DNA of 64,000 nucleotides from Candidatus Nomurabacteria bacterium (lineage in GTDB: Bacteria > Patescibacteriota > Minisyncoccia > Phycocordibacterales > UBA2100), in assembly GCA_943356775.1 (NCBI GenBank), contig CALRFU010000003.1, forward strand, positions 22,308 to 86,307, in the 5' to 3' direction. Each line of letters begins with the position of its first letter. Within the stretch, counting starts at the first letter, position 1. The notes beneath the pieces were generated by a model. The model had not been told where the DNA came from and searched no databases. It saw only the letters and a program-made list of their open reading frames with translations. Of this stretch, positions 3,801-37,319 are shown in pieces. Position numbers and translations under genes: made by a program.

Positions 3801-4520
3801 TTATTGCTCCAGATAAACGTTCGTCGCCTTACCGCCCTCTTCAACATACACATTTCCATATGGGTTCGGAGAAGTATTCGAAGGATCTCTGCCAGCCTCG
3901 TGCTCAAGCGCATCGACAATGTCTTGCATTTCCGCCGCTCCCCCCGATCCCGAGGCGGTATCGAGTGGATTTTGCAAAATTGAGGCTTCCCAAACAAGAG
4001 TCTCGCGACCGACAGCGCCACTTCCATACATTGATGACCATTCACCCTGCAGGCCGTTCATTGTCACCTGATACGAGACCACTCCCGCATCATTAAAAGT
4101 GCCTGCAGTTGTATCAGTGTACGAGACTGAGAGAATGCCATTTTTTGCAATACCAATTCCTTCTTGTGTCTGATTTCCGATTTGCCAATACAACAAGTAC
4201 ACATCAGACGACTTAACGATCGTCACGGTACCAAAGTACTGGGGCGTGAGGTCTGTGGCTCCGGGAGAAACCCCTTGGAGCGTGTAGACGCCTTCGCGAA
4301 TATCCGACGAGAAGAACGGCATATATGCACCCGAGGTAAAAACGAACGTCGCGATGCCGAGCACGATTGCGCACACGGCGATCGAAAGGAGCGCCTTTAC
4401 GGAAAAGCGTGAATGTCTGGGTGGTGGGAGCATGGAAGGCGGGATCGGGATGTTTGCCGAAGGGGGCATATACACAGTATACACGGTGCGATCCCGTGAA
4501 TCTGACATGGTTGGGGACAC
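3801..4520 (-). CDS. Hypothetical membrane-anchored extracytoplasmic protein
   Basis: One N-terminal TM helix ([19 protein letters not shown]) followed by a Gly/Thr-rich soluble domain. No family recognised. Confidence 0.4.
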
Positions 4521-5730: not shown

Positions 5731-7035
5731 TTATTCTACTGACTCAATGGAGGCGCCGAGTTTTTGGAGGCGCTCGGAGAGATTGGCATAGCCGCGATTT
5801 ATTGGATAGACGTTGCGAAGCATTGATTCCCCTTCTGCCGCGAGCATGCCGATGAGGAGGAGCGTGGCGGGACGGAGTGCAGGTGGAGCCTCAATATCAG
5901 CGGCGTGAAGCGGAGTCGGACCTTCTATCTCCACGCGATGCGGGTCGAGGAGAGTCATCTTTGCCCCGAGCTTTTGCATCTCCATATACCATTTCGCTCG
6001 ACCATCGTAGACCCAATCGTGGATGAGCGTGCGGCCCTTGGCCTGTGTCGCGATAGGTACGAAAAACGGCAGGTTGTCGATATTGATACCCGGGTATGGA
6101 CGGGGAGCAATTTTCTCCGGTGGTGCCGTGAATTCCGACGGCTTGATGGTGATGTCCCGTAAGACGGTGTGGCCGTTTTCTGACGAATACGCTTCACCGC
6201 GCTCGTAGCTCAGCCCCATTTGCTGGAGCGTATAGAGCTCAAGCTCGAGAAAGTCTATCGGGCAGCGCTCGATGGTTATTTCCGAACGAGTCGTCGCGGC
6301 GAGTGAAATGAAGAACATGGATTCGATAGGGTCCTCGCTCGGATGCCCGTGGACTTCGGAATTGATGTCGGAGAGGCCGTGTACGACCAATGTAGATGTG
6401 CCCACCCCTTCCACCTTGACCCCGCAGTGACGCAAGAAGACGCAAAGGTCTTGGACCATGTAATTGGCGCTCGCAAATTTGATAGTGGTCGTACCGGGAA
6501 TCTTTGCCGCCGCCATAAGCACGTTTTCGACACCGGTGTCCGAAGCTTCGTACATGATGATTTCCGCAGGATGCATTTCTTTTGTCTCAACGTGGTACGT
6601 ATGCGCGTCCTCATTTGCGCTAACTGCGATGCCGAGCTTGGCGAGCGCGTCGATATGCGCGCCGAGCGTCCGCTTCCCCAAATCGCAGCCTGCGGGCGCG
6701 GGCAAATCGAATGAGCCGATGAGGTGCGCGAGCGGTGCGATGAAAAGCGCGATGGAGCGCGTGCGCTGCGCGGACTCGACATGGATATTGGAGAGGTCAA
6801 TCTTTGCGGGCGGCGTGATGCGCATGTCGCCACTTGCATCCCACACGATTTTGACGCCGATACTTTCCATGACCTCGATAAGCCGCTTTACCTCTTCAAT
6901 GCGCGGCATACGTTTGAGAACCGTCTCACCTTTATTCAAGAGTGATGCGCACAAAAGCGCCACTGCGGCATTCTTGGAGATATTGGTTTGTACCGTTCCC
7001 GTGAGCTTCTTGCCGCCGATTACTTTGTAATTCAT
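5731..7035 (-). CDS. murA: UDP-N-acetylglucosamine 1-carboxyvinyltransferase
   Basis: MNYKVIGGKKLTGTVQTNISKNAAVALLCASLL N-terminus and overall EPSP-synthase-fold pattern typical of MurA. Confidence 0.85.
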   Translation of the reverse strand: MNYKVIGGKKLTGTVQTNISKNAAVALLCASLLNKGETVLKRMPRIEEVKRLIEVMESIGVKIVWDASGDMRITPPAKIDLSNIHVESAQRTRSIALFIAPLAHLIGSFDLPAPAGCDLGKRTLGAHIDALAKLGIAVSANEDAHTYHVETKEMHPAEIIMYEASDTGVENVLMAAAKIPGTTTIKFASANYMVQDLCVFLRHCGVKVEGVGTSTLVVHGLSDINSEVHGHPSEDPIESMFFISLAATTRSEITIERCPIDFLELELYTLQQMGLSYERGEAYSSENGHTVLRDITIKPSEFTAPPEKIAPRPYPGINIDNLPFFVPIATQAKGRTLIHDWVYDGRAKWYMEMQKLGAKMTLLDPHRVEIEGPTPLHAADIEAPPALRPATLLLIGMLAAEGESMLRNVYPINRGYANLSERLQKLGASIESVE

Positions 7036-7096
7036 AGCGCACACGTATGGTATGCGTACCGCAGCGCGTATGCAACGGATACCTTCATATTAATGA

Positions 7097-15627: not shown

Positions 15628-16291
15628 CTTTGTGTTAGCTCTATGTCGCCATAGAGTTCGGACTATATCTTCATCCGCTTTTTGCGGAGATTGGCGTGTA
15701 GTCTCTGAGGATTCTACCGTGCATTGCCTTTGCGAGCTCTTTCATTTCTTCGAATCCTTTATCCGTGAGATGAGTTTGAGCTTCAAAACGCTTTGCGATA
15801 TCCACGAACCTCTCGAAAGCAAACTTCTTGCTTTTAAAAAGCAATGGGTGCTTCTGAAAGAACGGGATAATCTTTGTCTTGATATCTTTGTAATTCTTTA
15901 CCTGATATTCAAGACAGTTCGAGAATGTTGGTCTTTCATCGATCTTCTTATAAACGATTCCGCAACGGAAGAAGTCACGAATTTCATACAAGATCATTCC
16001 ATCATCCTCTTTCAACTTAACTCCAAACATCAGTCGTACTCTCAAAGACTTGTATGTCTTCGAAAGATCTTGGCTCACGCTGACGGAAAAGTATCCTTCT
16101 CCATCAATGATGCCGACGACATAGTCGGGTGTTAATTTCGGTAGCCTTTCCTGCTGATTGCCTGCACTCAAAGCATTGTCACTCACGGGTACATTTTACC
16201 ACGTGAGTAGCCTGAGATTCTCAGATATTCCAGCATATAGCCAATTTTTTCTCCGGAGATTGCTCTCCGTGGTCGCAACAATTTAATCATA
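15628..16291 (-). mobile_element. Group I intron in 16S rRNA at the position equivalent to E. coli 1506 (GTCGT|AACAAGG)
   Basis: Exon sequence resumes exactly across the insert. Group I R element (TCAGAGACTACA, rc at 15706-15718) and S element (AAGATATAGTCC, rc at 15660-15671) are present near the 3' end. The 5' exon ends in U and the intron ends in G. Confidence 0.75.
15671..16186 (-). CDS. LAGLIDADG homing endonuclease encoded in the 16S intron
   Basis: VVGIIDGEGYFSVSVSQD LAGLIDADG motif. 171 aa. AT-richer than the host genes. Confidence 0.75.
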   Translation of the reverse strand: MSDNALSAGNQQERLPKLTPDYVVGIIDGEGYFSVSVSQDLSKTYKSLRVRLMFGVKLKEDDGMILYEIRDFFRCGIVYKKIDERPTFSNCLEYQVKNYKDIKTKIIPFFQKHPLLFKSKKFAFERFVDIAKRFEAQTHLTDKGFEEMKELAKAMHGRILRDYTPISAKSG

Positions 16292-16844
16292 ACGACTTAC
16301 TCTTTGTCATTGAGTTTGCCTTGGTACATTACGAGAATGTCCTTCGGGCACTCCCAACTTCCCTGAGTTGACGGGCGGTGAGTACAAAGCTTGAGAACGT
16401 ATTCACCGCGGTATGGCTGACCCGCGATTACTAGTGATTCCGGCTTCATGAGGTCGGGTTGCAGACCTCAATCCGAACTGGCGCCGCTTTTGAAAGATTT
16501 GCTCCGGGTTACCCCATTGCGCCTCGTTGTAACGGCGATTGTAGCGCGTGTGCAGCCCAGGACATCAGAGGGACATGCTGACTTGGCGTCATCTCCACCT
16601 TCCTCCCCCGTGAGGGGGCAGTCTCGCCTGATACGTGTAACAGGCAACGAAGGTTGCGTTCGTTACCCCACTGAAGGGAACGATTCAAACCACGAACTGA
16701 CGACAGCCATGCATCACCTGTCCTACACCCTCGAAGGCTTCCTAGCTTTCGCTAGGCGTGCAGTAGGATTTCTAGCCCTGGTAAGGTTCTTCGCTTAGCG
16801 ACGAATTAAGCCACACGCTCCACCACTTGTGCAAGCTCCCGTCT

Positions 16845-16876
<32 letters not shown>

Positions 16877-18180
16877 ACCCAGGCGGTCCGCTTAACGCGT
16901 TAGCTTCGCCTCAGAGAGGGTCGATACTCCCTAAAGCCAGCGGACATAGTTTAGGGCGTGGACTACCGGGGTATCTAATCCCGTTCGCTACCCACGCTTT
17001 CGTGCTTGAGTGTCAGGAACGCGCCAGTGCACTGCCTTCGCTTTCGGTATTCCCCATGATATCAACGGATTTCACCCCTACACCATGAGTTCTATGCACC
17101 TCTCACGCCCTCAAGTCGTGCCGTTTCGCCCGCGGATCCAGGGTTGAGCCCTGGGTTTTGACGGACGACTAACACGACCACCTACGCACTCTTTACGCCC
17201 AGTAATTCCGGGTAACGCTCGGGGCCTCTGTATTACCGCTCCTGCTGGCACAGAGTTAGGAGCCCCTTATTCATGAGGTAATGTCAATAACTTCTTCCCT
17301 CATAAAAGATGTTTACGCGCCGAAGCGCTTCATCCACCACGCGGTATCGCTCGATCAGGCTTTCGCCCATTGTCGAATATTCTCGGCTGCGGCCCCCCGT
17401 AGGGGTATGAGCCGTGTCTCAGTCTCATCGGTGGGGGTCAGCCTCTCAGCTCCCCTAAACGTCATAGCCTTGGTGAGCCATTACCTCACCAACTAGCTGA
17501 TATTACGCAGGCCGCTCCCAGAGCGAATTGCTCCTTTACTCTTACGAGACTATCCGGGATTACCTCACCTTTCGGCGAGCTATACCAGACTCTGGGGGAC
17601 GTTCCTACGTGTTACTACCTCGTCTGCCGGTGACCTTGCGGTCCCCTTGACTTGCATGCCTTATCCATACCGCCAGCGTTCACCCTGAGCTAGGATCAAA
17701 CTCTAAGTAAAGAATGACTCTCGTCATTCCCTCGCGTTTTCACTCGGGCGAAAATGAAAGCATAGCTCTCACCTCGTCTCCTCGCTATTGCGCAATTTAG
17801 AGATGTTAATGCTCTATTTAAGGATGGACGGAACAAAAGAATGTCGAAATCTTCTTTGCAGAAAATTTCGTCTCTCGTTCCAATTACTGTTTATTTACTT
17901 AACCATGAAATCCTCCTGAGACTCCATGATTATTTTCTGTTGTCTTGCTTTACCCTTCGTAGTCACGTCTAGATACACGTGACGAAGTAGGGCTTGTGTG
18001 TGTTTTCTTACCAATACTTTGGTTATGTATTGCGTACAATTGTTCTATTCAGTTTTCAATGTTCGTCCGAAGTCATTCATAGAAGTATTTCGGTGCATCA
18101 GCTCCCTCCCCCTATTTGGGGTCAAGTATGTAGAGGTTCGAGTGAACCTCAGACAAGCCATCAGGAGCGATGGTCGGAAG

Positions 18181-19621: not shown

Positions 19622-19913
19622 CATGAGACTGCACATTTCTCCGTTGAACGGTTCGCGCGAAAAGGTCGAGGCGTATCTAAAGCAGGCCCTGCCGACCATC
19701 GAAATCAACTTCGATGGGTCGGATAAGGCAGGCTACGACGCTGTTGGAGTTCTGGAGGTGTCGGAATTCGATCGCTTCCAGGAATTCCCGCAGATCCTCG
19801 AGCTAGCCGGCCGCAACATCGTGCAGGCGATCGGCAACCGTGCCCATGTACTCTGTCACGTCGGCAGAAACCCGGAAATCAAATGGGTGAACGATCCGAA
19901 CGAAGACTGGTAA
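19622..19913 (+). CDS. Hypothetical protein (97 aa)
   Basis: ATG preceded by a strong SD GAGGAGG with 6-nt spacing. Followed by the terminator at 19942-19972. Confidence 0.45.
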
Positions 19914-19941
19914 AGGCTGACCTGGATGAATCATCGAAGAG

Positions 19942-19972
19942 GGCGGCGATTGCAAAATCGCCGCTTTTCCTT
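19942..19972 (+). terminator. Rho-independent terminator (GGCGGCGATTGCAAAATCGCCGC + TTTTCC)
   Basis: Perfect hairpin followed by a T-run. Confidence 0.5.
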
Positions 19973-19975
19973 TAC

Positions 19976-20004
19976 TTGACGATACGAATCGATGCGGTTA
20001 CACT
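19976..20004 (+). promoter_or_regulatory. Candidate promoter TTGACG-N17-TACACT driving the T-box leader
   Basis: Hexamers with 17-nt spacer, immediately upstream of the leader. Confidence 0.45.
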
Positions 20005-20009
20005 CGACG

Positions 20010-20250
20010 CAGTTAAATCCATTGAGCTAGTTCCTCGCGCAAGCGGGGGTTGGGGCTAGTGAGGAGGTTGCTGCTTGTCCTGAGCGAAGTCGAAGGACGT
20101 GTGGTAATCCGGGCTCTCCCGTAACAGAGATAACCAGTGTCGCTATTAGTTATTTTTGCGGAGCTGGTGAGAAACAATTAAGGTGGCACCGCGAGAAAAT
20201 CGCCCTTATTACACAATTTATTTTTGTGTAGTAAGGGCGGTTTTTGTTTT
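20010..20250 (+). promoter_or_regulatory. T-box riboswitch leader (tRNA-sensing transcription attenuator)
   Basis: Conserved T-box sequence AATTAAGGTGGCACCGCG at 20177-20194, against consensus AAUUAGGGUGGNACCGCG. It is followed at once by a terminator: 14-bp stem CGCCCTTATTACAC/GTGTAGTAAGGGCG at 20201-20239, then GTTTTTGTTTT. The variable base is C, implying a tRNA discriminator G73. The Stem I region (20035-20150) contains candidate specifier loops with Asp codons (GAU at 20129-20131, GAC at 20094-20096). Confidence 0.75.
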
Positions 20251-20336
20251 GGAACTGCGAGTCTGCAACCCGAACGAAAGCGCCGCCAGTGGTTCTTTCG
20301 TTCTTTGAGATGACCATAAACCTTGGGAGTGACCCG

Positions 20337-20618
20337 ATGACAACCTTGTTGGACTGGACGAATCATGGAGGTATCGCATTCATCCTCGCATTCATAGCAG
20401 TCGTGACCGCATTGAGCGGTATCTATGAAAGAACGCGCCCAGTCCGTATTATCGGCAGTGCCCTCGCACTTGCCGTTCTTGCGGCCTTGGCGTACTCGCC
20501 CAAGATGGAGACGACGGCATTCATGATCTATGTCGTATTCTTTTTTCTTGCAGCCGCCGGCGTCCCGCTCCTTCTGCGCGCCATCAAAAAGGCACCGGCC
20601 CACGACTGGGGAATTTAA
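20337..20618 (+). CDS. Small integral membrane protein (93 aa, 3 predicted TM helices)
   Basis: SD GGGAGTG upstream of the ATG. Hydrophobic helices throughout. First gene after the T-box leader. The track ORF 20244-20618 begins at a TTG inside the terminator T-tract and is less likely. Confidence 0.45.
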   Translation: MTTLLDWTNHGGIAFILAFIAVVTALSGIYERTRPVRIIGSALALAVLAALAYSPKMETTAFMIYVVFFFLAAAGVPLLLRAIKKAPAHDWGI

Positions 20619-20631
20619 GGAGGGACTCGTC

Positions 20632-21063
20632 ATGAAAGCAATGCTCTACCACGCAAGCCGTTTTGGTTACGGGGTCGAAAGTCCTTCTGAAAGACTCGGA
20701 GGAGTCGGTCCAGAGAGGGTGAACGGCTCTGCGTCTCTCCTTGTCGAGGAGTGCTACGTTGCGCTCTTCCACGTGGAGGAGGGCGATGGCGAGGCACAAA
20801 TCGGCCGCTTCTGCCATGACGCCCAACGTTTTGCAAAGAAACTGGGGGCGACGAGGTTGGTGGTGGCCGCGTTTGGCCACCTCTCCAGCAACTACGCCCC
20901 AATGGAGATCGCCATCGCGACTTCCGGCCTAATCGTCAACAAATGTCGCGAGGAGTGGACAGGAAAGGGTGGCGAATTCCACACTTCACCCTTCGGCCAC
21001 AATAAAACGCTCACCCTTGAGACAAAAGGTCATCGCGATTCCATCAGGTTTCGCAGCTACTAA
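20632..21063 (+). CDS. Free-standing archaeal-type threonyl-tRNA synthetase editing-domain homolog (DTD-like fold, tRNA-Thr_ED-like)
   Basis: Strong SD AAGGAGGG. Motifs MKAMLYHASRFGY, VALFHVEEGDG, VVAAFGHLSSNYAPMEIA and SPFGHNKTLTLETKGH align with the MRxLLIHSDY / VVFxSVEKxD / YPFAHLSSxLAxP / APFGxYKxFxISCKGHP pattern of archaeal ThrRS N-terminal editing domains. This alignment is recalled from memory, not searched. Confidence 0.5.
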   Translation: MKAMLYHASRFGYGVESPSERLGGVGPERVNGSASLLVEECYVALFHVEEGDGEAQIGRFCHDAQRFAKKLGATRLVVAAFGHLSSNYAPMEIAIATSGLIVNKCREEWTGKGGEFHTSPFGHNKTLTLETKGHRDSIRFRSY

Positions 21064-21125
21064 AAAGTTGGGTTGCTGAGTGATACTATACTCAGCAACC
21101 CGACACCAATACCTCAACACACACT

Positions 21126-21800
21126 ATGAAAACTTTAGGCATTTTAGGAGGAATAGGACCAGAAGCGAGCAGTTATTTTTATGCTGAGGTCATCCGACGT
21201 CTGCGCGAAAGCGGCGCAATCCGTCGGAATACGGATTACCCGCAAATTTTCATCAACAGCATCAATGCGCCAGAACTCGTCTCGTTGGAAGTGACTGATG
21301 AACTGCTCGAGCCGTATGCACGAGGAATCATAGAGCTCGCGTCATTAAAGCCTGATTACATAGTGATGGTATGTAACACCATTCACCTTTTCCGCGAGCG
21401 ACTCATACGAGCCTCGGATTATGAAAAGATTTCAGATCTTTCACAAATTGTGGGGGCCGCGCTTGCCCACATGCCTGGAACGACTTGTGTCGTCGGAACA
21501 GCCGCGACGGTTACTTCTGGCCTTTACCATGTACCTGGTCGTATATATACCAACCCCGACGATACCCAACTCGCAGAGATAGGAAACATCGTTATAAGTT
21601 ACAACGCCTCTGGTGAAGTAGAAAATAATAGAGCTGCACTGCAACGAATAATCCAAGAGCGCCACATTGCGGGAGCAGATATATTCATTGCGGGTTGCAC
21701 CGAAATATCAGAACTACTACGGGGCGTGAAGGGATTTACTATCCTAGATACACTGGAACTCATCATACAAGACACGGTACAGCGAATACAGACTATTTGA
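21126..21800 (+). CDS. Aspartate racemase (Asp/Glu/hydantoin racemase family)
   Basis: LGILGGIGPEASSYFY N-terminus plus two catalytic Cys contexts, MVCNTIHLF and IAGCTEISEL, as in aspartate racemases. Confidence 0.7.
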   Translation: MKTLGILGGIGPEASSYFYAEVIRRLRESGAIRRNTDYPQIFINSINAPELVSLEVTDELLEPYARGIIELASLKPDYIVMVCNTIHLFRERLIRASDYEKISDLSQIVGAALAHMPGTTCVVGTAATVTSGLYHVPGRIYTNPDDTQLAEIGNIVISYNASGEVENNRAALQRIIQERHIAGADIFIAGCTEISELLRGVKGFTILDTLELIIQDTVQRIQTI

Positions 21801-21935
21801 CAAACTACTACCTCTGCCCTACCATCCCCTTATGAGTAACGGTCGAATCGCAGCAACCTCTTTCTTCTTTTTCTTTACATCCCGAGAAGGGGTATCTGTG
21901 TCGTTGCTCAAATAAACCAAAGCAACAAAGCAGAC

Positions 21936-21966
21936 AAGCCCCTCCCCGGAGGGGCTTTCTGTTTGT
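21936..21966 (+). terminator. Rho-independent terminator (AGCCCCTCCCCGGAGGGGCT + TTCTGTTTGT)
   Basis: GC hairpin plus T-rich tail after the racemase gene. Confidence 0.5.
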
Positions 21967-22129: not shown

Positions 22130-22786
22130 ATGCTGCGCGATAAGACAGGGGCTTCGTTCATCGCAAACCCCGGCGACGAAATTTCCCGCACGACCCCCGC
22201 TACAACGACCGGAAAAGTGCTGCGTATCGGTGTCGCCGGTGTCGAGGGTAGCTTTACCGAAATGGCTGCCAGGATGCACTGCAACGTGGGCGGGCTCAAT
22301 CTCTTCGAGCTGGTCTATCTGACCGCCACCGACAACGTGCTCGTGTCGCTCGAGACCGGCGGCATCGATCGCGCGATTTTCGCGATTGAAAACAGCATCG
22401 GAGGCGTCGTCAGGGAATACCTGCCGGCAATCCTGAAGCACCGTTGCAAATTCGTGACCACCTTCGACTTCGAAGTCGAGCAGGTCTTGATGGTCAATCC
22501 GAAGGTGATGGGCGGGCAGGTCACGGTAATTATTTCGCAAGGACAGGCACTGGCACAGTGTCAGATCCACCTTCGGGAAAACTATCCTGACATCCCCCAG
22601 CGTGACTACATCGACACCGCAACGGCGGCGCGAGACTTGCGCGGAGGCAAGCTCCCCCGCACGGCGGCGGTCGTCGGTTCGCGTGCGGCTGCCAGGCTCT
22701 ACGACCTCGACGTGCTCGCCGGCCCTATCCAGGACAATCAAAAGAACTACACGACGTTCATCGTAGCGGAACGACTGGCGGAGTGA
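22130..22786 (+). CDS. pheA: Prephenate dehydratase catalytic (PDT) domain protein lacking a C-terminal ACT domain
   Basis: AIENSIGGVV, SQGQALAQCQ and KNYTTFIVA match PDT motifs (IENSIEGSV, SHPQALAQC, NxTRFLVL). Only 218 aa, with no ACT regulatory domain. Confidence 0.65.
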   Translation: MLRDKTGASFIANPGDEISRTTPATTTGKVLRIGVAGVEGSFTEMAARMHCNVGGLNLFELVYLTATDNVLVSLETGGIDRAIFAIENSIGGVVREYLPAILKHRCKFVTTFDFEVEQVLMVNPKVMGGQVTVIISQGQALAQCQIHLRENYPDIPQRDYIDTATAARDLRGGKLPRTAAVVGSRAAARLYDLDVLAGPIQDNQKNYTTFIVAERLAE

Positions 22787-22923: not shown

Positions 22924-23676
22924 TCACTCCGCAGATCTTGACTGAAGTACTTGCGCTTCCGCTCGGGCAAGCGCGACGTCCACTTCGGCACAAAACCTGT
23001 TGTACCGCCGGACATCGTTGAACAAATCAGTGTCCTCTTCCACCATCTCCGCGCCGTCTTTCATGGAAGAAAATGACGTCGTGTCGAAAGTGGTCCGCTG
23101 GACACCGGCGGCTTTCCAGATTTGTGAGGTACGGTGTGCGAGATAGAGCGTCCACGCAGATATCCTGTCGTGCTCTTCTGCCGTCATCAACTCGACGACA
23201 AAGCCAAGCCTTTTGACGAACATGAGGAGCGACGCAACAACGTCGGCAGGCATTGAGTGGTCAACCAGCGCTATCTTAAAACCTCGCACGTTGCCGCGGC
23301 GGTTCTTGTAGGCGCCGGGGCCGAAGTTCGGATGACAGCACAGCCAGAAAATCCCTTCCGCGTATTGCCTGAGCAAATTGCGGGTGTGCTCCTTGACCGT
23401 TGCGATGTCGACGATGATTGCAAGCGGATTAAGCCGCTTGATGATAGGGACAATCTCGCGAATCACGTTTTCATATGCACGCGGCGGCACCGACAGCACC
23501 ACCACATCACACATGCAAACCTGTTCGAGAGTTGTGAATACGCCCCCATTTGCCTTCTTCGTGACATCGAACGCACACACTTTTACCTTCGACGCAAAGC
23601 GCCGGATGAGCCGTCGGGCATGACGCCCGAAGTGACCGTCTCCGCCGATAATGCCGATGGTTTTCACCATGACCAT
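22924..23676 (-). CDS. tyrA: Prephenate/arogenate dehydrogenase
   Basis: KTIGIIGGDGHFGR Rossmann N-terminus and TyrA-like core. GC-rich, like pheA. Confidence 0.65.
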   Translation of the reverse strand: MVMVKTIGIIGGDGHFGRHARRLIRRFASKVKVCAFDVTKKANGGVFTTLEQVCMCDVVVLSVPPRAYENVIREIVPIIKRLNPLAIIVDIATVKEHTRNLLRQYAEGIFWLCCHPNFGPGAYKNRRGNVRGFKIALVDHSMPADVVASLLMFVKRLGFVVELMTAEEHDRISAWTLYLAHRTSQIWKAAGVQRTTFDTTSFSSMKDGAEMVEEDTDLFNDVRRYNRFCAEVDVALARAEAQVLQSRSAE

Positions 23677-32407: not shown

Positions 32408-32517
32408 GTGTTGGCGCCGGCCTACTCTCCCTTGCGAGTACCATCGGCTCTGGAGGGCTTAACTGCCGTGTTCGGAATGAGAACGGGTGTAGCCCCTCCG
32501 ACAAAGCACCAACACGG
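32408..32517 (-). rRNA. rrf: 5S ribosomal RNA
   Basis: rc reads GTGTTGGTGCTTTGTCGGAGGGGCTACACCCGTTCTCATTCCGAACACGGCAGTTAAGCCCTCCAGAGCCGATGGTACTCGCAAGGGAGAGTAGGCCGGCGCCAACAC, with helix I closing and loop C/E motifs. Confidence 0.8.
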
Positions 32518-33674
32518 AATGCTCAAACGATATCCGTGTTCGCGGCTAACTAGAAATATGAGGTGTAGCTCACATCCAGAAAGCACCAACACGGAATGCT
32601 CAAATTGAGATTCCGTTCATTGAAACGAAGAGCGATAAGAAAGATTCGAAAACAATGTACCCTACTACGCTCCTCTCGGAGCTTCGAAGGGCAATGCGCG
32701 ACTCTCACAATTCCTTTCGAGAGTTCTGTCGGCGGATTAGTACACCTCGGCTACACGCATTGCTGCGCTTCCACCTGGTGCCTATCAACGTGGTCATCTC
32801 CCACGAGCCTCAAACGATTTCTGATCTTGGAGTTGGTTTCCCGCTTAGATGCTTTCAGCGGTTATCCTTTCCCGACATAGCTACGGGGCGATGCCACTGG
32901 TGTGACAGCCCCCAGACCAGAGGTCAGTTCATTTCGGTCCTCTCGTACTAGAAACGAATCTCCTCAAAAATCAACGCCTGCAGCAGATTAAGACCAACCT
33001 GTCTCACGACGGTCTGAACCCAGCTCACGTACCTTTTTAAATGGCGAACAGCCATACCTTTGGGACCTTCTCCAGCCCCGGGATAAGATGAGCCGACATC
33101 GAGGTGCCGAACTTCGCCGTCGATTTGGACTCTTAGGCGAAACCAGCCTGTTATCCCCAGAGTAACTTTTATCCGTTAATCTTCGGCCGCATCTAATGCG
33201 GACCGTCGGTTCACTATGCTCCGCTTTCGCGCCTGCTTGTCATGTACGACTCACAGTCAAGCCGCCTTTTGCCATTACACTATCGGCACGGTTTCCATTC
33301 GCGCCTAGGCGACCATAATAGGCTCCTCCGTTACTTTTTAGGAGGACAGCGCCCCACCGAAACTGTCCATCAGGTACTGTCTCTCTTGGGTTTCTCCCAA
33401 GAGGTTAGAACATACAGAAACGTAGGATGGTATTGCACTGGCGACTCCACCACAACCGAGATCATGGCTTCAAAGTCTCCCATCTATGCTACGCAACGCA
33501 CCCGTATATTCAATACCAAATTACAGTAAAGCTTCTGGGGTCTTTTCGTCTTGCTGCAGGAAGGCGGCATCTTCACCGCCCTTGTATTTTCACCAAGCAA
33601 ATCCCCGAGACAGTTCCCAACTCATTATACCATTCGTGCGCGTCTGAACTTACCAGACAAGGAATTTCGCTAGT

Positions 33675-34446
33675 TGTCAATCCACACATCGCTGTGCGGA
33701 ACGAACTCTATCTTCAAACAAGCACCGCTTGTTTGTCTGACGTGTGGTTTCTGGGGATTCTCTTAAAGTCGTCAACGACGTCTTGTTTTTCGTATTTCCG
33801 CTTCCTTCCCTTTCCTTCGTTAAGTTTTTCTCGCAATTCAATGATTCTCATAAACCCCTTGCGAGCAAGATGCTCTCCGGAGTATACGATCATCGCAATT
33901 TGTTTGAACAGCGCGAAGTTTCTGGTTTTGGATTCGGATTGAAAAGGAAACCGCTCAAAGAACGGGAATACCTTTTCTACGAGTTCGACGTAATTTGTCA
34001 CCACAAAGTAATGGACTCCATCACTTCGTCTTTGTAACCTACCGCACTGCAAATGTTTTTGCAAAAGCAGAAGATTGGTGACATCTCGTTGGGCTACATT
34101 GAAGGTGAGAACTACCTGCCATTGGAGTTTGTGATCCGGTCTTTGGCGGAGAGAAACACTGAAGCTTCCCTCGCCATCACTGAATCCTGACAAATACCAA
34201 CCCAAACTTTGGGAATTGATTGGCGGTGTGTTCATACGTCCAATTATAGCACCTGATTTCAAGAGTCTTTCCTGCTGATTGTCCGCACTTCAAGATTGTT
34301 ACTGTCTTGCGACTAGTACTTGAAGATACTCGGATTTCCCAGCATATGGTCAGATGTTTAAAGACATTTTGCTTTCGCAAAATAGGCAGCGTTCATGAGG
34401 ATAACCGTCCCAGTCCTTCCGCCACCCTCGTATTGAGAGGGGCGAA
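33675..34446 (-). mobile_element. Group I intron B in 23S domain IV (about E. coli position 1931, between CCTAAGGT and AGCGAAATTCC), carrying a LAGLIDADG ORF
   Basis: Exon segments CGTCCTAAGGT (34447-34457) and TAGCGAAATTCC (33661-33672) flank the insert. Degenerate R/S-like elements sit near 33730-33790. Shares the 90-bp 5' element with intron A. Boundaries are good to about 5 nt. Confidence 0.65.
33714..34262 (-). CDS. LAGLIDADG homing endonuclease encoded in 23S intron B
   Basis: LGWYLSGFSDGEGSFSVSLRQRPD LAGLIDADG motif, 182 aa. Confidence 0.7.
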   Translation of the reverse strand: MKSGAIIGRMNTPPINSQSLGWYLSGFSDGEGSFSVSLRQRPDHKLQWQVVLTFNVAQRDVTNLLLLQKHLQCGRLQRRSDGVHYFVVTNYVELVEKVFPFFERFPFQSESKTRNFALFKQIAMIVYSGEHLARKGFMRIIELREKLNEGKGRKRKYEKQDVVDDFKRIPRNHTSDKQAVLV

Positions 34447-34460
34447 ACCTTAGGACGATT

Positions 34461-34913
34461 CTCCTTTGTTAATCTGCTCGCGAATTAACAGTAGCTACGA
34501 GCAACTCTCTATGTCGCCATAGAGGCCGGACTATATCATCTCTGCTTTTGCAGAGTCCGACGTATAGTCTCTGAGGATTCTTGTGAACTTCAGTGAAAAA
34601 ACTATGCCTGTTTGTCCGGGTACATTAAATGAGTAACCACTGCTGCGATTGCAAGCGCAGCAAACGATACCCACGAACCCCTCAAACCTAAGAAATAGGA
34701 AACAAGAAGTAATCCTGCGCCAACCGCTCCAAAAATGAGCGATTTCTTCCAGGTTATTTTCATGTTTCTACTCTAGCACACTTTTCTCAATGAAGTTCAC
34801 AAGTCTTTCCTGCTGATTGTCCGCACTTCAAGATTTTCACTGCCTTGCGGCTAGTACTTGAAGATACTCGGAGTTTCCAGCATTTGGTCGGATTTTATAA
34901 CTACAATCATCTT
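34461..34913 (-). mobile_element. Group I intron A in 23S (about E. coli position 1915-1917, after AACTAT), no intact endonuclease ORF
   Basis: Exon GCGATAACTAT ends at 34914. Exon resumes as AATCGTCCTAAGGT at 34460-34447. R element TCAGAGACTATACG and S element AGATGATATAGTCC are present (rc of 34506-34582). Only a 53-aa hydrophobic ORF lies inside. Confidence 0.6.
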
Positions 34914-36338
34914 ATAGTTATCGCCGACATTGACCGGGGCTTATGTAGCGCCAGCCTTCATTCTTGCGAACGAAGACCGACCACATTTGACCTTCCGGCA
35001 TTGGTCAGGCATCACCCCCTATACATCCTCTTACGAGTTCGCAGGGAGCTGTGTTTTTGGTAAACAGTTGGTTGGGAAATTTTAACTGCGGCCCTTCTTG
35101 CGAAGGGCGGACCTTATCCCGAAGTTACGGTCGCTTTTTTGCCGAGTTCCTTGGGGATCTCTCACTTGTTCGCCTTACTCTACTCGAGCTGAACACCTGT
35201 GTCGGTTTGCGGTACGGTCCGCGCATGTTTATGCTTAGAGGTTTTTCTTGGAAGCGCGCTCTCTTGAATCTGCTTCGGCCGAGGCCTCCACATTTCCACT
35301 TCGCTCGGACTATAGGAACCGGATTTACCTGGCTCCCATCCTCACGACATGAACCCAAAACCAATAATGGGCCCAAGATACAGCACTCCGTCCCCCCGTC
35401 GCAACATGCGCAGGTCATGGAATATTAACCATGTGTCCATCGCCTTCGGCATTCGCCATCGGCTTAGGCCCGACTAACCCTTCGATGATCTCCATTGCGA
35501 AGGAAACCTTGTTCTTTCGGCGTGCGAGAATCTCACTCGCATTGCGGTTACTCGTGCCAACATTTTCACTTCTGTACGCTCCAGCATGGGTCACCCCTTT
35601 GCCTTCATTGCAAACAGAACGCTCTCCTACCACTTCACTTTCCCGAAGGAAAGAAAAATCCGCATCTTCGGTATCACGCTTAGCCCCGATCATTTGTGGC
35701 GCAAGATCTCTAAGTGAGTGAGCTGTTACGCTTTCTTTGAATGGTGGCTGCTTCTAAGCCAACATCCTCACTGTCTCTGAAATCTTACCTCCTTATTTGC
35801 ACTTAGCGTAAATTTTGGGACCTTAGATGGCGATCTGGGCTGTTTCCCTTTTGACCAACGGAGCTTCGCCCCCGTAGTCTAACTGCCGCGCTATTACCTC
35901 TGGTATTCGGAGTTTGATAGAGGCAGTGGTCTTTCGACCTATCCGCTTCTTCCAGTGCTCTACCCCCAGAGGGAACACACGACGCAAGCCCGAAAGCTTT
36001 TTCGGAGAGAACCAGCTATTACAACGTTCGATAAGCTTTTCACTCCAACCCACAAGTCATCCCAGGATGTTGCACAATCCAAGGGTTCGGCCCTCCATCT
36101 CTATTTCTAGAAACTTCAGCCTGCTCATGGGTAGCTCACGTTGCTTCGGGTCTGATACAAACGACAAACGCGCTATTCACACTCGCTTTCGCTACGGCTC
36201 CATGCTTTGTCGCACTTAGCCAAGCCGTTTGCATCAACTCGTTGGCTCATTCTTCAATAGGCACGCTGTCGAGGACATTGCTGCCCTCTTCAACTCCTTG
36301 TAGACATGTGGTTTCAGTTCTATTTCACTCCCCTCACC

Positions 36339-36381
<43 letters not shown>

Positions 36382-37319
36382 ATCTGAAGAAGTATGTAGC
36401 ATTACCGGTTAGTCCCGGCGAATTCACCCGAGCTATTCATGTCTCGAGCTACTCAAGAACTACAGCCATAGAGATGCTTTGATTTCGAGTACGGGGCTAT
36501 TACCCTCTGGGGCTCTGCTTCCCAGCAGATTCCTCTATCTAAGCATTTTTTTACTCTACCTATTGCTAGCGCTGTAGCCTTATAACCCCCATCCCCAAAA
36601 TCGACTCGCAAAATCTACTTTTGGTAAACTTGTGCGCTTCGATTTTGTGGCTGAGTTTGTGCTTTTCCCGTTTCGCTCGCCGCTACTAAGGGAATACCTA
36701 TTGGTCTCTTTTCCTCTCGGTACTGAAATGTTTTACTTCCCGAGGTCTGCTCTCTCAAACGTTTAAGTTGAGAGTTATCAAGGATTACTTGATAGGGTTG
36801 CCCCATTCGGAAATCTCCGGGTATAACGATTGCTTGGCATCTTACCGGAGCTTATCGCAGCTAAGCCGCGTCCTTCATCGCCTTCTTCAGTCTAGGCATC
36901 CACCACACGCCCTTACTCAGAACTCCCGCTAGGAATTCTAAGAACCGCGTATTGCACGCATCCCCTACAAGAGGGACACGTGACTTTGTTTTCTTGCCGC
37001 TTTTTTAGAAAGGAACGGCATCCTTTTTTGCTTTGTGTTTTTACAGCTACGTCTCATTCAGCAGAATGACCTACTGGGTTAAGACGCAGCATCCTGCATC
37101 TCACTTCGGTAGACTACACCGAAATAAGATTTTATTCTTCTTGTCCACCGTAGCCTTTCGACCACAGCGGATTTCTTTCTTTCTCGCTCTTCAATTTTCA
37201 ACGATCTACGTACAAGTCACGAAAAAAGCCGCTTGAAAGCGGCCTGGTCGCAGAGCTTGGGAGCTCGGCTACCTGTGCCACTTCGTGAAGCTTTTAAGCG
37301 ATAACATATACGTCGAAAG

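Follow-up and report, generated by a model that had tools for sequence, protein, structure and literature searches.

A platform-less T-box leader with a predicted tryptophan specifier precedes an archaeal-type ThrRS editing-domain homolog and a racemase in a Candidatus Nomurabacteria contig

T-box riboswitches closest to the element considered here are the transcriptional (class I) T-boxes, such as those of B. subtilis tyrS and glyQS, the actinobacterial ileS T-boxes of M. tuberculosis and N. farcinica (Sherwood 2015; PMC7583486), and the tryptophan T-boxes of trpS, trp operons, and tryptophan transporters (S. suis trpX, PMC9382623; TBDB, PMC7778990). An intermediate or ultrashort Stem I is typical of the translational actinobacterial T-boxes, in which Stem II and the Stem IIA/B pseudoknot are then essential (PMC7583486). 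The leader described here lies in a stretch of 64,000 nucleotides from a Candidatus Nomurabacteria bacterium (contig CALRFU010000003.1), the whole of which is called the window, and it precedes a 93-aa open reading frame (ORF), a gene for a 143-aa homolog of the archaeal threonyl-tRNA synthetase (ThrRS) editing domain (ED), and a gene for a two-cysteine racemase. The leader is a genuine but divergent T-box, belonging to a class that joins an intermediate Stem I, with the specifier in a side bulge and no platform, to Stem II, the pseudoknot, and a classical intrinsic terminator; judged from its sequence, it is very probably a transcriptional T-box that senses tRNA-Trp. Its parts are as follows.

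19976-20004, plus strand: promoter TTGACG-17-TACACT, sigma-70-like (hexamer scan)
20010-20255, plus strand: T-box leader of the short-Stem-I class (RF00230 match, class nhmmer match, fold z-score)
20019-20064, plus strand: Stem I (Rfam alignment, covariation)
20051-20053, plus strand: predicted specifier UGG (Trp), followed by the purine G20054 beside the lower helix (bulge alignment and TBDB frame rule)
20066-20109, plus strand: Stem II hairpin (minimum-free-energy and centroid folds), a region variable between loci
20110-20130, plus strand: Stem IIA/B pseudoknot with an F-box-like CCCGUAA (IIA 20110-12/20119-21; IIB 20115-18/20127-30)
20134-20167, plus strand: Stem III with base helix CCAG/CUGG, 3 of 4 base pairs showing compensatory changes
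20179-20208, plus strand: antiterminator (A1 20179-83/20204-08; A2 20191-94/20200-03; Rfam alignment)
20197-20253, plus strand: intrinsic terminator, a stem of up to 20 bp and a U-run (hairpin 20197-20243 with a 10-T run, by scan)

The T-box identity, proposed in an earlier note on this DNA, holds on the strength of a top match to RF00230, a T-box sequence with its 7-nt bulge, a mutually exclusive terminator, and covarying stems, and it is shared by eight leaders of one class in seven independent loci (the window, L001, L008, L014, L015 with two leaders, L016, and L020; L001 is the same locus as L007 and L021, and L008 the same as L017). The T-box core, AATTAAGGTGGCACCGCG, lies at 20176-20193, i.e., 1 nt off the placement at 20177-20194 in that note. 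The Rfam scan gives a divided outcome, with no T-box called over the window at curated gathering thresholds, and RF00230 as the top family in a permissive local scan of 19900-20400 (20013-20210, 40.7 bits, E 1.1e-7). The gathering score of RF00230, 93 bits, is missed by the window leader and by the seven others, the eight spanning 27-48 bits, and RF00230 is the best Rfam match for all eight; the low score arises because a platform-less intermediate Stem I is combined with Stem II, the pseudoknot, and a terminator. Moreover, nhmmer with the class alignment matches the window at 20010-20255, a segment whose fold z-score is -5.0. The TTGACG-N17-TACACT promoter, likewise proposed beforehand, was found as a promoter-like site at 19976-20004; conserved leader sequence begins about 6 nt 3' of it, and sigma-70-like -35 and -10 hexamers occur at the equivalent distance in 8/8 leaders of the class. 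A terminator-like hairpin at 19939-19968 (hairpin scan) separates the leader unit from the upstream gene; since this hairpin closes that gene and the promoter follows it, the leader has its own transcription unit, the transcript of which is predicted, with strong support, to start at about 20010 from this promoter.

Stem I is composed of a kink-turn (K-turn; C20019-20/G20063-64, with G.A pairs 20024-25/20061-62), a lower helix (20027-31/20055-59), an asymmetric specifier bulge having one U on its 5' side and G-U-U-G-G-G (20049-54) on its 3' side, and an upper hairpin of 6 bp (20033-38/20043-48) closed by a GCAA loop. In the Rfam alignment, Stem I takes up 25 nt where the RF00230 model has 76, and the distal tRNA-elbow platform of interdigitated T-loops is absent, with just the 6-bp hairpin and its 4-nt loop above the bulge. 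The pseudoknot has the sequence CCGGGCUCUCCCGUAAC-AGAGA, which carries the F-box, whose role is taken from PMC7583486. The antiterminator, UAAGG-UGGCACC-GCGA...UCGC-CCUUA, is placed with high posterior probability in the Rfam alignment and is nearly invariant in sequence among the eight leaders, its 7-nt T-box bulge UGGCACC occupying 20184-90. The 5' arm of the terminator overlaps the 3' strands of A2 and A1 and is thereby mutually exclusive with the antiterminator; terminators of -36 to -41 kcal/mol, with the 5' arm overlapping the antiterminator, are present in 8/8 leaders. The hairpin and T-tract that had been proposed directly after the T-box are thus present, at 20197-20243, and the stem has up to 20 pairs instead of the 14 then given. 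The terminator sits about 90 nt upstream of the first ORF.

For the assessment of covariation, conserved elements were registered by hand across the eight leaders, with N standing in for gaps to make MAFFT preserve the columns, after which pairs were counted; nhmmer and the hand-registered alignments served in place of a covariance model. Among the 18 pairs counted (Stem I lower helix, upper hairpin, IIA, and IIB), 100% of cells are standard pairs and 11 pairs changed on both sides, giving a covariation score of 0.647 against 0.26 in shuffles (0/500 reach the observed score). When partners were slid by 1-3 columns as a control, just 32-53% of cells paired. Compensatory changes are found in 9 of the 11 Stem I pairs, all cells of which (100%) pair, and in 2 of the 4 pairs of helix IIB, from U-A to C-G, while IIA is invariant.

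The amino acid to be sensed is read from the specifier bulge, whose length and position are invariant among the eight leaders and whose 3' strand follows the pattern R-Y-U-(G/C)-G-G, with UGG in seven leaders and UCG in one (L015a). By the '+0' frame of TBDB, the specifier lies at 2-4 nt, counted from the bulge's 3' end, and tRNA-Trp has discriminator G (PMC7778990); from the R-Y-U-G-G-G bulge and this frame, the specifier is predicted to be UGG (Trp). The bases UGGC (20184-20187) could pair with the 3'-GCCA of a G73 tRNA, and the conservation of UGGC in all eight leaders therefore calls for such a tRNA, in agreement with the earlier note. Taken together, the UGG specifier and the UGGC bulge make uncharged tRNA-Trp (anticodon CCA, G73) the predicted effector. 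tRNA-Ser also has G73, fitting the UCG of L015a. Two alternative frames were rejected: UUG (Leu) is ruled out by A73 and by the GCUGGG of L016; for GGG (Gly), no trailing purine would be left, and U73 excludes it as well. The aspartate specifier first proposed is not borne out, since the covariation-supported Stem I puts UGG in the bulge, while the GAU and GAC codons lie in paired regions elsewhere. For GAU at 20129-20131, G20129-A20130 belong to helix IIB (20115-18/20127-30) and are followed by U20131; for the GAC formerly placed at 20094-20096, the closest such triplet is 20096-98, which falls in the 3' arm of the Stem II hairpin, where it is paired. At these positions, the other leaders conserve neither codon.

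The transcription unit downstream of the leader contains the following features.

20337-20618, plus strand: 93-aa ORF (TM93) with three hydrophobic segments, lineage-specific (ORF list)
20632-21063, plus strand: 143-aa free-standing homolog of the archaeal ThrRS N-terminal editing domain, with a DTD-like fold (PF08915, 1Y2Q, AF2/Foldseek)
21067-21104, plus strand: conserved GC-rich intercistronic hairpin without a U-tract, folding at -24 to -32 kcal/mol in each of the 5 loci of the class that carry ED and racemase
21126-21800, plus strand: 224-aa pyridoxal phosphate (PLP)-independent two-cysteine racemase of the Asp/Glu/hydantoin racemase family (PF01177, 1JFL)

The first gene agrees with the earlier description of a 93-aa transmembrane protein, its three hydrophobic segments being read from the sequence; no Pfam or NCBIfam family matches it, and no homolog occurs in the other loci. 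For the 143-aa protein, the proposed ThrRS-editing-domain/DTD fold is well upheld: PF08915 (tRNA-Thr_ED) matches residues 1-135 of 143 with 60.8 bits against a cutoff of 30.2, and a PDB profile search finds 1Y2Q at E 4e-20. An alignment-based AlphaFold2 (AF2) model, with a predicted local distance difference test score (pLDDT) of 89.6, was compared by Foldseek with the N-terminal domains (NTDs) of P. abyssi and A. pernix (2HL1, 4RR6, 1Y2Q), giving a template-modeling (TM) score of 0.86 and a root-mean-square deviation (rmsd) of 1.8-1.9 A; over the ThrRS NTDs of P. abyssi, A. pernix, and M. jannaschii, TM is 0.80-0.87 and rmsd about 1.8-2.6 A, and for canonical DTD and ATD, TM is 0.66-0.71. In the P. 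abyssi NTD, the residues near the scissile bond are Pro80, Phe81, Ala82, His83, Tyr120, Lys121, and Glu134, of which Tyr120 and Glu134 contact the seryl moiety, yet are dispensable (PMC4491819). In the CPR (Candidate Phyla Radiation) family to which the window protein belongs, the equivalents of Phe81, His83, and Lys121 are invariant, Pro80 is replaced by Ala, Ala82 by Gly, and Tyr120 by Asn; Glu134 is apparently replaced by Val or Ile, as extrapolated one residue past the printed alignment. A thrS gene was not found in the window or in L022.

The racemase matches PF01177 with 49.4 bits against a cutoff of 31, and its best PDB sequence match is the aspartate racemase of P. horikoshii (PhAspR), 1JFL, at E 8.5e-13. 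Both catalytic cysteine motifs (CNT.H and GCTE) are kept, MVCNTIH and AGCTEIS aligning to PhAspR Cys82 and Cys194. The NCBIfam model asp_race (TIGR00035), by comparison, gives 75.9 bits, below its cutoff of 93.1, and PhAspR Arg48 and Lys164 align to Leu51 and Ala in the window racemase and throughout its subfamily; 'aspartate' is therefore just a family label, and of the aspartate racemase first proposed, the Asp/Glu-family assignment stands and the Asp specificity does not. RacX, of the same superfamily, racemises L-Trp with a kcat/Km of 140.6 s-1 mM-1 (PMC12838360), which makes Trp, by analogy, a plausible substrate class for the window racemase. Between the ED stop codon and the racemase start lies the hairpin GGGUUGCYG...CRGCAACCC, followed by a C/A-rich spacer and a racemase gene without a Shine-Dalgarno (SD) sequence in the five loci; its equivalents are L001 2498-2529, L008 3431-3466, L014 3940-3978, and L015 3304-3341. 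The hairpin may be a processing, stability, or protein-binding element. Accordingly, the strong SD that had been claimed for each gene is real for ED (AAGGAGG), weak for the TM93 ORF (GGGAG), and absent from the racemase gene.

Homologs of the 143-aa protein are all free-standing, of about 140 aa, and come from metagenome-assembled genomes of CPR/Patescibacteria where a source is named. Scans of genomes and metagenomes gave ten ED loci, from Paceibacterota, Liptonbacteria, Yanofskybacteria, Saccharibacteria, Nomurabacteria, and metagenomes; a PF01177 racemase gene adjoins ED in nine of them, and the tenth locus ends at the ED gene. The racemases form two subfamilies, one 61-63% and the other 23-27% identical to the window protein. 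Contexts for further members of the first subfamily were fetched, and a search was made with a hidden Markov model of the leaders; together these gave the eight leaders, and the gene order after each Trp-type leader is given below.

Window: TM93, ED, racemase
L021: 159-aa ORF, ED, racemase
L017: 90-aa ORF, 131-aa ORF, ED, racemase
L014: ED, racemase
L015b: 83-aa ORF, ED, racemase
L016: 76-aa ORF, racemase
L020: 403-aa ORF, racemase, M20 peptidase

The small leader-proximal ORFs are mutually unrelated across loci. By Rfam and nhmmer, no leader of the class was found in L018 or L019, or at ED loci whose racemase is of the other subfamily. The T-box is tied to the first racemase subfamily, which is at least 60% identical and has the distinct pocket motifs NSINAPEL and YNATGE, yet L018 and L019 belong to that subfamily and lack the leader. 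The linkage of leader and genes in related CPR genomes, which the earlier note proposed to check, is seen in five loci, the window included, in which the leader precedes ED and racemase; ED is absent from L016 and L020.

Several further observations concern these loci. L015 has two tandem leaders of the class, 1663-1877 and 2288-2522, the first with UCG (Ser) at the specifier position and preceding a 92-aa protein without a known family that is 36% identical to the product of window ORF 19623-19913. This window ORF (96 aa) lies directly upstream of the Trp leader; nhmmer and Rfam found no second leader in the window that would precede it, though its L015 homolog has the UCG T-box. A family of about 400 aa (motifs LLYAAAH, GG.P..VFN, and VG..P.Y..RD) is common to L018 636-1862, L019 2828-3994, and L020 2688-3896, where it takes the place of ED directly before a racemase of the first subfamily and, in L020, follows a Trp-type leader. 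The protein of about 400 aa has no Pfam, NCBIfam, or PDB-sequence match, a word-indexed search returned itself alone, and its single-sequence AF2 model (pLDDT 36) is unusable. The second racemase subfamily (motifs LPCNTLH and ACTDLQL) pairs with ED in L002, L003, L005, L006, L009, and L010, with the leader absent. In L003, GGTGGAACTCGC...GCGAGTTTT stands just upstream of the ED gene, and a weak Rfam Trp_leader match covers 3850-3952 (30.6 bits, gathering 41).

Following the established T-box mechanism, uncharged tRNA-Trp would pair with UGG through its anticodon, and its free GCCA-3' end would dock on UGGC, stabilizing the antiterminator so that RNA polymerase reads into the 93-aa ORF, the ED gene, and the racemase gene; charged tRNA could not dock, and the terminator would form. 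By analogy with the actinobacterial ileS T-boxes, tRNA affinity would come from Stem II and the pseudoknot, and it would have to do so because Stem I is without an elbow-binding platform. As a weaker inference, the operon may serve to handle tryptophan chirality: under L-Trp scarcity, the racemase would turn available D-Trp, or a related hydrophobic D-amino acid, into L-Trp, and the NTD/DTD-fold protein would hydrolyse D-Trp-tRNA-Trp, which TrpRS would form more readily at a high D:L ratio. Such a module is suggested because the ED-racemase pairing is pan-CPR, the fold is of the DTD type, the archaeal NTD reportedly edits D-amino acids, and D-Trp-tRNA-Trp is said to be a DTD substrate, the known DTD substrates comprising D-Tyr, D-Trp, and D-Asp. 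The scheme of D-Asp import, racemisation, and deacylation that was first put forward has to be recast around Trp, and the recast scheme is itself conjectural. A Trp-sensing transcriptional T-box coupled with Trp-chirality enzymology is, as a whole, a reasonably probable explanation; the specific enzymology of D-Trp racemisation and D-Trp-tRNA-Trp clearance is offered tentatively and may well prove wrong.

A number of points weigh against this explanation. Transcriptional T-boxes generally require the distal platform of Stem I (PMC7583486), and the window leader both scores below the RF00230 gathering threshold and has no such platform. A search for a tRNA-Trp gene over the window, 16 loci, and a 10-kb contig extension found none, which leaves the anticodon and G73 of the organism's own tRNA-Trp as predictions. 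Hand registration of the structural alignment biases the pair counts towards structure; even so, without a real structure the slid controls and so many double changes would be hard to account for. For the proteins, the sequences of ED and racemase give no proof of specificity for Trp or for D-amino acids, and the pocket residues of ED do not differ between loci that have a T-box and loci that have none, for which reason ED is probably not Trp-specific in itself. PhAspR Arg48 and Lys164 are taken to be the binders of the side-chain carboxylate, a role for which support was not found in the open-access literature searched. Lastly, a terminator-like hairpin precedes the racemase gene in L016 and L020, where ED is absent (at about 2088-2135 and 3915-3955, respectively, with U-runs, between the leader-proximal ORF and the racemase gene); co-transcription is therefore less sure there, and the racemase in these two loci may be outside T-box control.

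Alternatively, the leader may be a Trp T-box while ED edits L-Ser-tRNA-Thr in trans for a ThrRS without an editing domain, its place in the operon reflecting neighborhood history. This is distinctly unlikely, although ED is much closer to the ThrRS NTDs (TM 0.86) than to DTD (TM about 0.66), the equivalents of His83 and Lys121 are kept, and Crenarchaea have ThrRS-editing proteins of the free-standing kind (A. pernix ThrRS-2; PDB 4RR6; PMC4491819); ED is linked to a racemase and not to thrS in 9/10 loci, the leader is predicted to sense tRNA-Trp and not tRNA-Thr, and the Ser-contacting Tyr120 and Glu134 are replaced, though PMC4491819 reports their side chains as dispensable. A second possibility, quite improbable, is that ED proofreads L-amino acids mischarged on tRNA-Trp (Phe- or Tyr-tRNA-Trp), which would be frequent when Trp is scarce, and that the racemase has a separate salvage role. 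Induction by uncharged tRNA-Trp would come exactly when mischarging is to be expected of TrpRS, an enzyme that is not known to have an editing domain. Members of the DTD fold have also evolved relaxed chiral selectivity, e.g., ATD (PMC5802732), but this proposal leaves the pan-CPR pairing of ED and racemase unexplained, including the loci without any T-box.

A slim chance is given to a third account, in which the racemase makes a D-amino acid for the cell wall or for signalling, ED is a general DTD substitute, and the Trp T-box is a lineage-specific addition without substrate meaning. In its favor, ED and a racemase are paired in the absence of a T-box in Liptonbacteria, Saccharibacteria, Nomurabacteria, and others, and the ED residues are identical whether or not a locus has a T-box; against it, the T-box is tied to one racemase subfamily and found in no locus with the other (though L018 and L019, of the T-box subfamily, lack the leader too), and inducing D-amino acid output during Trp starvation has no obvious logic. 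Trans-editing, mischarging, and general protection each leave either the racemase linkage or the Trp leader unexplained. The Asp-specific T-box of the earlier note (GAU/GAC and G73 tRNA-Asp, inducing D-Asp import, Asp racemisation, and D-Asp-tRNA deacylation) is scarcely credible, for although UGGC fits the G73 that tRNA-Asp has too and the racemase is closest in PDB sequence to P. horikoshii aspartate racemase, UGG is the triplet in the specifier bulge, both Asp codons are paired and unconserved, and the racemase falls under the asp_race cutoff with Leu and Ala at the Arg48 and Lys164 positions. Returning to tRNA-Trp sensing with chirality handling, its boldest form would be a T-box regulon, the first of its kind, that serves quality control in translation and the chirality of amino acids. 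In it, a bacterial protein descended from the archaeal ThrRS editing domain would have taken on a new role as D-aminoacyl-tRNA (D-Trp-tRNA-Trp) deacylase beside a dedicated Trp/aromatic racemase, letting CPR bacteria live on D-tryptophan, and uncharged tRNA-Trp would turn the system on through an uncatalogued architecture of intermediate Stem I and terminator; stated in full, this is speculative and rather unlikely.

Adjoining the operon and elsewhere in the window are the following features.

21797-21966, plus strand: Phe leader-peptide attenuator, an adjacent unit (promoter-like site, FFFFF ORF, terminator, prephenate dehydratase downstream)
22130-22786: prephenate dehydratase (PDT; PF00800)
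5734-7044: EPSP synthase
22927-23676, minus strand: prephenate dehydrogenase
16255-17711, 32409-32513, 32716-36928, 34507-34923, and 15671-16186, minus strand: rRNA, intron, and LAGLIDADG stretches

The sequence of 21797-21966 marks it as a classical Phe attenuator for pheA, with a promoter-like site TTGACA-17-TACCAT at 21797-21825, a 27-codon leader ORF with FFFFF at 21832-21915 (MSNGRIAATSFFFFFTSREGVSVSLLK), and a GC hairpin at 21936-21957 with a T-run; Rfam Phe_leader RF01859 matches weakly (28.4 bits against a gathering score of 55), and a near-identical leader peptide stands at the same place in L015, 4068-4154. The terminator at 21936-21966 that had been thought to close the operon is a real hairpin (21936-21957), but it follows a promoter-like site and FFFFF ORF of its own before prephenate dehydratase and is therefore primarily the attenuator terminator; it may additionally end read-through from the racemase gene. 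With EPSP synthase, prephenate dehydratase, and prephenate dehydrogenase in the window, the operon sits among aromatic amino-acid genes, a setting that favors the tryptophan reading. A cluster of ileS, glyS (dimeric type, 442 aa), and metG lies in L022 1-9421, the 10 kb that follow the window; leaders of this class were not found there before glyS and metG, two synthetase genes for which the organism thus makes no use of such leaders. The 16S gene lies about 15 kb from the 23S-5S pair, so that the rRNA genes are unlinked, the 23S gene (4.2 kb) contains a group I intron (57.4 bits) and other insertions, and a LAGLIDADG ORF adjoins the 16S gene (gene calls for L011).

In a full-text literature search covering open-access papers, no report was found of a T-box riboswitch in connection with Patescibacteria or the Candidate Phyla Radiation, and nothing relevant on deacylases in CPR; there was likewise no report of a T-box regulon with a racemase or deacylase, co-mentions with deacylase concerning other topics as judged by title and abstract. 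To that extent, the earlier view of a T-box before a racemase and an editing-domain protein as an undescribed arrangement is sustained. The locus extends T-boxes into CPR/Patescibacteria, and its leader, as a transcriptional T-box lacking the elbow platform of Stem I, opens the kinetic argument for such a platform to direct test. As these leaders fall below the Rfam threshold, standard annotation pipelines miss them, and a class-specific model would probably find more. The leader would link tRNA-charging status to a protein of tRNA-proofreading fold and a racemase, and a role of free-standing NTD-like proteins as bacterial chiral proofreaders is suggested by the strong linkage of ED to racemases across CPR phyla, which also points to D-amino-acid use by auxotrophic or scavenging ultra-small bacteria.

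Compared with the transcriptional (class I) T-boxes, the window leader has in common the K-turn, the specifier bulge with its codon and following purine, Stem II, the IIA/B pseudoknot with F-box, Stem III, the 7-nt UGGN bulge, and the competing antiterminator and terminator; it differs in that Stem I ends in a 6-bp hairpin above the bulge, with no AG bulge, distal loop, or interdigitated T-loop motif (IDTM) platform, in scoring under half the Rfam gathering score, and in its CPR-type host. The actinobacterial ileS T-boxes share the truncated Stem I without an elbow platform, Stem II, the IIA/B pseudoknot, and, in the 'intermediate' type, the specifier in a side bulge, but they are translational, sequester the SD, and respond to Ile, whereas the window leader has a strong intrinsic terminator and a predicted Trp specifier. 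Similarly, the Trp T-boxes share UGG and a variable bulge base that pairs with G73, and they differ in their targets, which in the window are an editing-domain homolog and a racemase and not a synthetase, biosynthetic enzyme, or recognisable transporter.

Among the proteins, ED shares with the archaeal ThrRS NTD and with crenarchaeal ThrRS-2 and ThrRS-ed (1Y2Q, 4RR6) the fold (TM 0.86), a full-length alignment, and Phe81/His83/Lys121, and it is free-standing like A. pernix ThrRS-2; in contrast, it occurs in a CPR bacterium, has Asn for Tyr120 and apparently Val or Ile for Glu134, is paired with a racemase, and lies under a predicted tRNA-Trp T-box. DTD (1JKE) and ATD belong to the same fold superfamily, and the job proposed for ED, the clearing of D-aminoacyl-tRNA, is that of DTD, although ED is a distant structural match to them (TM 0.66-0.71, 8-16% identity) and stands outside the DTD sequence family. 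The racemase shares with the PLP-independent racemases (PhAspR 1JFL; the broad-spectrum RacX/YgeA) the CNT.H and GCTE cysteine motifs, the length, and the fold family, but it is without the P-D-R and K164 positions of PhAspR and forms its own subfamily. Set against these systems, the locus pairs a structural and functional T-box variant with a bacterial, so far uncharacterised branch of the archaeal ThrRS editing domain.

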